18,130 nucleotides of DNA from a virus. Lineage: Duplodnaviria; Heunggongvirae; Uroviricota; Caudoviricetes. Shown one piece after another: positions 5,342-6,680 of this stretch. The stretch is taken from positions 1-18,130 of the IMG/VR virus record IMGVR_UViG_2671180283_000002; one strand, given 5' to 3'. The position numbers and the translations under genes are program-made. The notes under the pieces are model-generated. The model saw only the letters and a list, made by a program, of their open reading frames with translations, searched no databases and was not told where the DNA came from. Within the stretch, counting starts at the first letter, position 1. The number at the start of each line of letters is the position of its first letter.

Positions 5342-5940
5342 GCGGCCTCACTTCTGCTATTTCGCAGGTCTTTGAGTTTCTGCTGATACTCCGCCTTAAT
5401 GGCCCTGCACTCTTCGACAGTCCAGCGATGGCGGTTATGGTTTGATTCGATTTCGTCTACTGCTTCCTGCCCGATGCGGTTAATCAGTTCGACGCGATAC
5501 GGAACGAGATTTCCGCTTTTATGTTGGTTGCACACCACGCATTGCTTGTGAATATTGCGTTCATCAAATCGGAGTTGAGGCGCCGCAGCAGTTGTCCGGT
5601 AATGCCCGGCATCCCACTGAGCAGACGTGAGCGTTCCGCACGAGATACATGGTAAGTCGCGATCTCTTTCTCTGATGAAGGCGTTTACGGCTTGTTGGGC
5701 TTGTTTAATCCAGTAACTGCGGGGCTTTAAGGCGAGTTTTCGAATCTTCAGTTTATCTTTCTGTTTCTGCTCCTCTCGTCGTCGTTTCTTCTCTGCTGCT
5801 TTTTCCGCTTTTTCGCGTTCTTTGCTTCGTCGTTCGAGTGCTATCTTGGTTCCACAAATCTCATTACACCAATATTGATTTTGATATTTTGGTATAAACC
5901 ATTCATTGCAACATTTACATTTCCTTCGATAGATTCGCAT
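5338..5940 (-). CDS. ninG: NinG / Rap recombination endonuclease, N-terminus remodelled (about 200 aa)
   Basis: Track ORF 5338..6000 starts at a non-ATG codon; ATG at 5940 has a strong SD (AAGGAG, 6-nt spacer). From [16 protein letters not shown] onward it matches lambda NinG; the first ~30 codons are AT-rich and overlap the HNH ORF. Confidence 0.85.
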
Positions 5941-6481
5941 AAGTGCTCCTTTCGTTGCCGGAAAAATCACCGTAATACTTATCTCGGGCTTCTTCAGCAA
6001 CTAGTACCGCTAACTCCAGATCATCAAAGCATCCGAAGTGTTTACTCTTGCCATGGAATCCTAGCCTAACATTCCATTTTTTCTGTCGTTTGTGCCAAGT
6101 AACCCCTCTGCAACCTGATTTGCTATTCTTTCGGATCCTTATATTTCTTGAATTTTCTATTGGCAGGCATTCTCTTAAATTTTCTGGCCTATTGTCGGTC
6201 CTAATTCCATTAACGTGGTCAATTTGACCAGCAGGCCAACGATTATGAGTTATGTAAAAAACTAAGACGTGAGTTTTATATCTACGCCCATCTATTATGA
6301 TCATTGAATAACCGTTGGAATCAAAAGTTCCAGCAACACTATTTAATGCTATCCTTCCCTGAGTGGGAACTTTCCATCTAAATACCCCGGTAGATTTATC
6401 GAAACTTAGTAACTCAAATATCCTTTTAACAGTTAAATCTTCTCTTTTACGGTTACATCGTCTTCGCGCTGGTTTAGCCAT
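5915..6481 (-). CDS. HNH homing-type endonuclease with C-terminal AP2 DNA-binding domain (about 188 aa)
   Basis: HNH block ([34 protein letters not shown]) followed by an AP2-like block ([33 protein letters not shown]). Track ORF starts at GTG 6562; ATG 6481 preferred because of SD GGAGGA with 8-nt spacer. 3' end overlaps the ninG start by 26 nt. Confidence 0.75.
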
Positions 6482-6680
6482 CGCCTTCTTCCTCCGTAAT
6501 GGTTTTCTGAATTTGGCCACCTGAACAGAGCTCACCAAAGCTATGGATGTCGGTATTTCCACAATACCAAGATGGCGAAAATAACTGCATGATAAGCCTC
6601 AGGGAAAAGGGAAGACACTACCCCCGATAATTCAGAAACAAATCGAAATACATGAACTAAAGAAAAAACCACAACAAACA

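Follow-up and report, generated by a model that had tools for sequence, protein, structure and literature searches.

We describe a cassette in which an HNH-AP2 homing endonuclease gene (HEG) of the free-standing type, together with the 5′ end of a distant ninG homologue, was probably copied once into a lambda-type ninG gene, and which is best read as a homing cassette. It was found in IMG/VR record IMGVR_UViG_2671180283_000002, and the 18,130 nucleotides (nt) of the stretch analysed, hereafter the window, are part of an Escherichia coli lambdoid prophage with bet, gam, kil, cIII, a repressor/cro-like region, O/P-type replication genes, ren, ninB, a methylase gene, ninE, Q and a holin gene. Evidence for this interpretation includes the position of both junctions within the ninG coding sequence, the linkage of the endonuclease to a substitute ninG start, and the low diversity of the cassette on many flanking backgrounds.

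Both junctions of the foreign block lie within ninG

The junctions were defined by alignment of the region with phage lambda (Table 1). The start of lambda-type ninG is retained as far as nt 29 (ATGGCTAAACCAGCGCGAAGACGATGTAA), encoding MAKPARRRC, and the left junction follows at 6453|6452. Sequence foreign to lambda, comprising the endonuclease body, a new Shine-Dalgarno sequence and ATG, and 28 divergent ninG codons, then takes the place of nt 30–93, and the right junction lies at 5857|5856, where lambda-like sequence is back at TGTGGAACCAAGATAGC (window position 5856, lambda ninG nt 94). The ninG coding sequence thus contains both junctions, one following nt 29 and the other preceding nt 94. 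Upstream of the retained start, the 14 nt that precede the endonuclease ATG follow lambda with at most three mismatches (the GAGGAAGAAG Shine-Dalgarno region and the end of ninF), and the sequence is divergent further upstream.

The two junctions are alike in all cassette loci. The upstream boundary is likewise the same in all 58 of them whatever gene precedes, the common sequence starting about 15 nt before the ATG. That upstream gene varies: ninF, in several alleles, directly precedes the endonuclease gene in E. coli MS 196-1 and in many IMG/VR contigs, and an unrelated reverse-strand open reading frame (ORF) and a hexamer repeat precede it in this window and in Shiga toxin 1 (Stx1) phages. 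The modules downstream of the cassette also differ between loci. To judge from these alignments, the shared junctions show that the endonuclease body and the heterologous ninG 5′ end were installed together and once only, pointing to a single origin. They also show an in-frame fusion, in which the endonuclease would use the ribosome-binding site and codons 1–9 of ninG itself.

A first-pass annotation of the window had proposed that a homing endonuclease entered the 5′ end of ninG and brought replacement sequence with it, and had suggested alignment to insertion-free lambdoid ninG genes to locate the junctions; the exact junctions obtained in this way support the proposal. Its further suggestion that MAKPARRRC derives from the original ninG start is borne out by the 29 nt identical to lambda and by the homologous endonucleases, which lack this extension. 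The possibility it had raised against itself, that the HNH ORF is an integral upstream gene with no junction at ninG, does not agree with two junctions inside ninG and a variable upstream gene.

Two other explanations of the block were discarded. Divergence of the ninG start in situ to escape cleavage was ruled out, as 44% divergence with indels over 84–93 nt lies beside 3% over the remaining 522 nt. A group I intron or intein was ruled out by the absence of an Rfam match (no family reached the gathering score in 5300–7000), by the stop codon and by the duplicated N-terminal motif described below: the HNH ORF stops at TAA 5917–5915, and ninG restarts in another frame with its own Shine-Dalgarno sequence and ATG. 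An apparent variant right junction (hit H230) proved to be an IS2 insertion in ninG.

Table 1. Features of the ninG cassette and its surroundings, in window coordinates
Feature	Position	Strand	Details
Lambda-type ninG translation-initiation region (GAGGAAGAAG..)	6482..6495	-	ninF 3′-end remnant; now serves the HNH ORF
Original ninG start, codons 1–9 plus 2 nt (ATGGCTAAACCAGCGCGAAGACGATGTAA; MAKPARRRC)	6453..6481	-	29-nt run identical to lambda ninG nt 1–29
HNH-AP2 endonuclease ORF	5915..6481	-	ATG 6481, TAA 5917–5915; 188 residues; coordinates include the stop codon
Foreign block	5857..6452	-	596 nt in place of 64 nt (nt 30–93) of lambda-type ninG; from the lambda alignment
HNH_3 catalytic core, residues 68–107	6161..6280	-	Pfam and homologue alignment
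AP2-type DNA-binding domain, residues 123–171	5969..6115	-	Pfam AP2 E 2e-4, 22.2 bits, below the 33.3 gathering score; fold match
New ninG Shine-Dalgarno sequence AGGAG	5946..5950	-	5-nt spacer to ATG 5940; within the 3′ tail of the HNH ORF; read from the sequence
Overlap of HNH 3′ end with ninG 5′ end	5915..5940	-	26 nt, from the ORF coordinates
Replacement ninG codons 1–28	5857..5940	-	28.6% GC; second, complete ninG start
ninG	5940..5338	-	ATG 5940; Pfam NinG PF05766, E 4e-85
Lambda-like ninG remainder, codons 29–200 plus stop	5338..5856	-	96.9% nucleotide identity to lambda over 522 nt

The cassette supplies a second, complete ninG start

The replacement start differs from the rest of the locus in composition: GC content is 28.6% over ninG codons 1–28 (5940–5857), 38.6% over the endonuclease body and 49.9% over the rest of ninG, and it is 48–52% in the 5′ ends of lambda ninG and of 67 insertion-free alleles. 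The first-pass annotation had described the first 30 or so ninG codons as AT-rich like the endonuclease gene. The AT richness stands; the stretch is exactly 28 codons, ending at 5857, and its AT content does not just resemble that of the endonuclease gene but exceeds it. The overlap of the two genes by 26 nt and the strong Shine-Dalgarno sequence before ATG 5940, on the other hand, were found as it had given them (AGGAG with a 5-nt spacer). The upper bound of 6562 that it had set for the element had to be corrected. This position is the GTG that opens the maximal HNH ORF in the present context only; as the extension does not exist in loci with ninF upstream, the functional start is ATG 6481.

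Aligned with lambda nt 1–93, the replacement start is identical in 53 of 94 columns (56%). Because the RR(R/K)C motif of the retained MAKPARRRC recurs in it, the replacement start is a second, complete N-terminus rather than an extension of the first. The chimeric NinG protein keeps the C..C..W..WC...C pattern of lambda and other NinG N-termini, and its PF05766 match spans profile positions 5–192 of 193. The protein shares 181 of 198 aligned residues with lambda NinG, the N-terminal stretch accounting for 14 of the 17 differences. These features show that ninG retains a reading frame of full length by way of the new Shine-Dalgarno sequence and ATG.

Sequence variants of the new N-terminus were also seen: a G-to-T change converts its conserved Trp24 to Leu in five loci (L008, L013, L014, L025 and L027), and L025 carries an additional disruption downstream of the right junction.

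The inserted gene encodes an HNH-AP2 endonuclease

The catalytic core of the endonuclease is recognised by Pfam HNH_3 (E 4.2e-11; 42.7 bits, cut-off 24.8), and the protein matches phrog_99, 'HNH endonuclease', at E 1e-70. Residues D88, H89, N101 and N110, the last lying just past the HNH_3 core, are invariant in an alignment with 13 homologues. The AlphaFold model has a pLDDT (predicted local distance difference test score) of 87, and its AP2 domain adopts a three-strand-plus-helix fold that superposes on AtERF1 (1gcc; root-mean-square deviation 1.3 Å, 51 columns, probability 1.00) and on WRI1 (7wq5; 1.9 Å over 61 columns). The best match of the whole model in the PDB is I-HmuI; Foldseek probabilities against the PDB were high, with modest E-values of 0.009–0.13. 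A sequence search of the PDB gave a sub-threshold AP2 match (WRI1) only.

Both ends of the protein bear on the fusion. Homologous HNH-AP2 proteins start approximately 10–15 residues later, without the MAKPARRRC extension, and the C-terminal tail (about 10 residues, with low pLDDT) extends past the ends of the homologues, over the new ninG Shine-Dalgarno sequence and start. More than 3,500 phage records contain relatives at below 60% identity; many of these proteins carry the annotation homing endonuclease, and one genome often encodes several of them. Outside the cassette, identity to the nearest relatives, which are free-standing HNH enzymes from T5-like, Jersey-like and other phages, does not exceed 47%. 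Searching for a donor of the endonuclease by tblastn of the phage collection gave no more than 44% identity outside the cassette, and a scan of one genome per species gave only a 39% match, in a Planctomycetota metagenome-assembled genome. A source named in the cluster of 99%-identical proteins (P0002) is Salmonella enterica serovar Infantis.

The E. coli MS 196-1 prophage (L004) encodes two further HNH-AP2 paralogues, 37–38% identical to the ninG one (1392–1850 and 5719–6219); one is split and degenerate, upstream of ninB, and the other is intact, just downstream of Q. Lambdoid prophages may therefore have been colonised at several sites by this HEG family.

Endonuclease and substitute start are always found together

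Among 5,426 complete E. coli genomes, the endonuclease body was present in 538 and the AT-rich ninG 5′ end, searched as a 100-mer, also in 538; among the matches listed for the 100-mer, every row was annotated NinG plus HNH. The endonuclease is at least 99% identical in 529 of the 538 genomes. An intact lambda-type segment was found in 828 of the complete genomes. In IMG/VR, the endonuclease occurs at 98% identity or more in 56 contigs. A degenerate back-translated pattern of the new N-terminus retrieved 51 contigs; those names that were compared, by eye, were all in the HNH list, and five of the contigs lacking an exact pattern match differ from it by one base. Within 50,697 phage records, the N-terminal peptide of the cassette was present in only four, covering the two Stx1 phages SH2026Stx1 and AU6Stx1, and all four bear the HNH gene; other ninG genes in the phage collection are at most 61% identical over this peptide. 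An AT-rich ninG 5′ end in endonuclease-free phages, which the first-pass annotation had named as evidence that would count against its proposal, was not found: the anchor used for insertion-free lambda-type IMG/VR alleles was located in 67 of 80, and all 67 have the lambda-type 5′ end, with 48–52% GC.

The cassette is thus not a chance pattern, the same block and junctions recurring across 538 genomes and 56 contigs. These counts show a strict linkage of the endonuclease to the substitute ninG start, as far as database sequences can reveal it. Of the complete E. coli genomes, about 10% have the cassette, and O157:H7, O111 or O103 strains make up most of these carriers. It occurs in Stx1 prophages of O157:H7 among others, where it precedes Q and stx by a few kilobases. 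We found no published description of an HNH gene in ninG; subscription journals were outside the coverage, and this is accordingly weak evidence of novelty.

The cassette is less diverse than its flanks

Diversity was calculated from 39 loci with intact ninG, the frameshifted locus being left out. With 16 variable sites in 625 nt, the cassette has a nucleotide diversity of 0.0033, approximately seven-fold below that of the adjoining ninG body (0.0235; 58 variable sites in 528 alignment columns). The cassette resides on 8–14 haplotype clusters of the ninG body, 2–4 of which include empty alleles. Cassette-bearing and empty alleles coincide exactly in four right-flank haplotypes (110 nt) and in four left-flank haplotypes (90 nt), and the flank polymorphism nearest to the cassette is 33 nt away on the right side and 3 nt away on the left side. 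Presence and absence of the cassette are thus polymorphic at one fixed site in otherwise homologous genomes. Because deletion of the cassette cannot restore the 64 nt that were lost, the shared backgrounds reflect gene conversion, in either direction. Judged by their haplotypes, the flanks show a cassette that has spread across many backgrounds. The gene-conversion pattern is what homing predicts, and it would be compatible with ordinary lambdoid recombination too.

Proposed origin of the cassette and alternative explanations

In the scenario that we favour, the donor would have been an HEG located just upstream of a distant, unsampled ninG homologue, and the HEG would have cut a lambda-type ninG gene. 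The right crossover may have been homologous, at the conserved TGTGGAACC (ninG nt 94), and the left joint illegitimate, after ninG nt 29. One-sided illegitimate repair of double-strand breaks is an established route to new sites, demonstrated for T4 intron homing as summarised in PMC2988022, which cites Parker et al. 1999. Once installed, the endonuclease would be translated from the ninG ribosome-binding site and first nine codons, coupled to ninF translation where ninF is present, and NinG/Rap would be translated from the Shine-Dalgarno sequence and ATG of the cassette, its Cys-rich N-terminus being homologous but of heterologous origin. The enzyme would nick or cut insertion-free lambda-type ninG during lytic growth, and recombinational repair would copy the cassette into the broken allele, that is, by intronless homing. 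The predicted target lies in the 64 replaced nt or across their edge, since all other ninG sequence is still present in carriers. Carriers would be shielded from their own enzyme by the replacement segment, which is 56% identical to the lambda sequence; exchange of the 64 nt for a segment identical in 53 of 94 columns would destroy most recognition sites.

A number of observations weigh against this scenario. The cleavage site of a free-standing HEG can be hundreds of bases away from the place where the gene is inserted (PMC2988022), and the placement of the target in the replaced 64 nt is therefore logic, not data. The donor searches returned little: a 40-residue query with the new ninG start retrieved only cassette-derived fragments, an exhaustive phmmer search of 1.84 billion representative proteins retrieved nothing closer to it than about 63% identity, and a search of 5.8 billion proteins with the endonuclease retrieved the 99% cluster, one 104-residue fragment (89% identity over 46% of the query) and then matches of at most 47%. 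Variants within the HNH ORF comprise 9 non-synonymous and 6 synonymous changes, indicating weak constraint, and decayed copies exist: a 1-bp deletion frameshifts the HNH ORF in L061, and IS2 is inserted in ninG just after the new start in L005 (2643–3871). In at least four genomes (NZ_AP018488.1, NZ_CP021335.1, NZ_CP038305.1 and NZ_CM167685.1), with O157:H7 genomes among them, the cassette-bearing prophage is accompanied by another prophage whose lambda-type allele is intact and 100% identical over the replaced 65 nt, so co-resident alleles have not been converted in these lysogens. The nin operon is silent in lysogens, and its repression would explain this coexistence; an inactive enzyme would explain it too. 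Lastly, free lambdoid recombination and clonal expansion of enterohaemorrhagic E. coli (EHEC) lineages could give the same flank pattern.

The intact insertion-free alleles beside the cassette, the 9:6 variant ratio, the frameshifted and IS-disrupted copies and the predominance of O157:H7, O111 or O103 carriers would all fit a fossil, namely a cassette of homing-endonuclease origin whose enzyme is now inactive or irrelevant and which spread only passively, through ordinary homologous recombination and through the clonal growth of EHEC lineages that make up a disproportionate share of database entries. We judge this unlikely, as the ORF is full and D88, H89, N101 and N110 are kept in nearly all copies, with the near-identity of the endonuclease in 529 of the 538 genomes and a diversity seven-fold below that of adjoining ninG. 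Moreover, the variety of flank haplotypes, whose breakpoints fall within tens of bases, exceeds what hitch-hiking in a few clones would produce, and with a silent nin operon the coexistence of alleles is expected even of an active enzyme. Going beyond homing as such, the cassette might be an active, self-immunising element of gene-end replacement. Expressed only after prophage induction, it would cut lambda-type ninG in other lambdoid phages, whether co-resident or superinfecting, and act as a programmed source of double-strand breaks in the nin-Q-stx region of poly-lysogenic EHEC, driving recombination between Stx and non-Stx prophages, and its NinG/Rap would have a different zinc-finger-like N-terminus. 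This is a speculative idea, and we think it improbable.

We give very little credence to two further explanations. The nin region is typically mosaic (PMC2629481), and another foreign low-GC ORF lies immediately upstream in the window; the HNH gene could on these grounds be an optional nin-region gene, or moron, swapped at module boundaries, the AT-rich start being just another ninG allele. Yet the junctions are within the ninG coding sequence instead of at gene boundaries, one of them fuses nine ninG codons in frame to the endonuclease, only 28 codons are foreign, the other 172 being 97% lambda-like, and the supposed allele never occurs without the endonuclease in the 5,426 genomes, the 50,697 phage records or IMG/VR (where contig names were compared by eye). 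It is just as hard to credit that the HNH-AP2 protein serves the phage or its host, whether as a packaging HNH protein like HK97 gp74, as an AP2-type transcription regulator or as a nuclease that excludes competing lambdoid phages or defends against them. HNH proteins with such roles are known elsewhere, and excluding competitors by cutting ninG would be mechanistically the same act as homing. Nevertheless, the gene adjoins neither terminase nor cos and belongs to the nin region upstream of Q, with ninF (or the reverse ORF) on one side and ninG on the other; no PADLOC defence model matched the protein at E ≤ 0.001; and architecture and homology are shared with multi-copy free-standing HEGs of T5-like and Jersey-like phages.

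Other features of the locus

On the minus strand, ninG is followed by ninH, then a Ser/Thr phosphatase gene and then Q. The endonuclease gene and ninG are probably co-transcribed with the delayed-early nin operon, because no promoter-like site was found on the coding strand in 5300–7000, nor anything resembling a terminator from the HNH start to ninG.

The reverse ORF upstream of the endonuclease gene encodes 617 residues (window 6981–8834, plus strand, about 33% GC) and runs antisense inside the nin operon, at the usual position of ninF. It matches phrog_9230, of unknown function, with no Pfam or PADLOC match, and is also present in the Stx1 phages SH2026Stx1 and AU6Stx1, where it is annotated with 590 residues; it looks like a moron of foreign origin. 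Between this ORF and the endonuclease gene lies a perfect-looking hexamer array, AAATAG × 11.8 (plus strand, window 6676–6746). SH2026Stx1 and AU6Stx1 differ by 60 nt in the spacing of these genes, which suggests copy-number variation of the hexamer repeat. Elsewhere in the window, the cIII thermoregulator RNA element RF01804 (16798–16856, plus strand, 88.5 bits) was the sole Rfam family to reach its gathering score.

Significance of the cassette

By its sequence features, the element is classed as an HNH-AP2 HEG with a co-converted flank, a known kind of mobile gene, with a distinctive anatomy in which the start signals of the target appear captured and its N-terminus replaced. The anatomy would record a route by which an HEG enters a coding sequence and the invaded gene survives: the start signals are taken, and a heterologous, functional-looking 5′ end is delivered. 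To our knowledge, work on homing endonucleases has dealt almost exclusively with virulent phages such as T4, T5, SPO1 and ICP1. The ninG cassette places an HEG in the most tractable temperate phage system, and wild-type lambda bears the predicted susceptible allele (ninG nt 30–93), so that homing, the length of the co-conversion tract and the target are open to standard lambda genetics. The four genomes with both cassette and empty allele are natural double lysogens suited to a study of conversion on induction. Given the location of the cassette in O157:H7 Stx1 prophages, close to Q and stx, the enzyme, if active, would be relevant to recombination among Shiga-toxin phages. The RefSeq labels 'HNH endonuclease' and 'NinG' hide the chimeric nature of both proteins.

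Comparison with known systems

A close parallel is found in T-even phages, where the free-standing homing endonucleases SegF (at gene 56), SegG (at gene 32) and MobE (at nrdB) spread by intronless homing (PMC2988022). As in these systems, the ninG HEG lies beside or within a conserved phage gene, is present or absent between otherwise homologous genomes and has a donor flank that is co-inherited, the carrier allele differing from the susceptible allele near the insertion. Unlike the T-even examples, the ninG cassette is found in a temperate lambdoid phage, encodes an HNH plus AP2 protein and not a GIY-YIG enzyme, and is known from sequence alone. Its ORF is fused translationally to the first nine codons of the target, and its co-inherited flank is a heterologous 28-codon N-terminus in place of a near-identical allele.

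HNH-AP2 proteins are a recognised class of HEG, as presented in PMC10448857 with reference to Magnani et al. 2004. The ninG endonuclease shares with this class, including the 'IPA-HNH' proteins of ICP1-like phages (PMC10448857), an N-terminal HNH and a C-terminal AP2 domain and an occurrence in phage genomes, often near or inside important genes. It differs in being at most 47% identical to any sampled member and in lying in an E. coli lambdoid prophage; it also matches the canonical Pfam HNH_3, whereas the ICP1 proteins do not (PMC10448857). At the structural level, the counterpart is I-HmuI (PDB 1u3e), an intron-encoded HNH nicking endonuclease of Bacillus phage SPO1 that gave the best match to the whole model and has the same His-Asn-Asn catalytic motif, at 14% sequence identity and a Foldseek E-value of 9e-3. 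In contrast to the ninG endonuclease, I-HmuI is encoded by an intron, has a different DNA-binding tail and lacks an AP2 domain.

Two systems resemble the cassette in the way that the resident gene is affected. In gene 31 of epsilon34, a lambdoid (P22-like) phage, the N-terminus of the resident gene is fused in frame to an HNH HEG (PMC2629481), which has likewise captured the start and N-terminal codons of its host gene. The epsilon34 gene, unlike the ninG cassette, belongs to the early-left operon and to a different HNH lineage, and no replacement 5′ end is described for it. In the Aeromonas phage Aeh1, the insertion of mobE splits nrdA and gives a ribonucleotide reductase encoded by genes in pieces (Friedrich et al. 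2007, as summarised in PMC2988022). From that summary, the two cases have in common a free-standing HNH HEG inside a coding sequence and new translation signals through which the host gene can remain functional; they differ in that Aeh1 NrdA is made as two polypeptides that reassemble, whereas ninG is left unsplit, its short 5′ fragment being given to the endonuclease and a complete substitute N-terminus being supplied.

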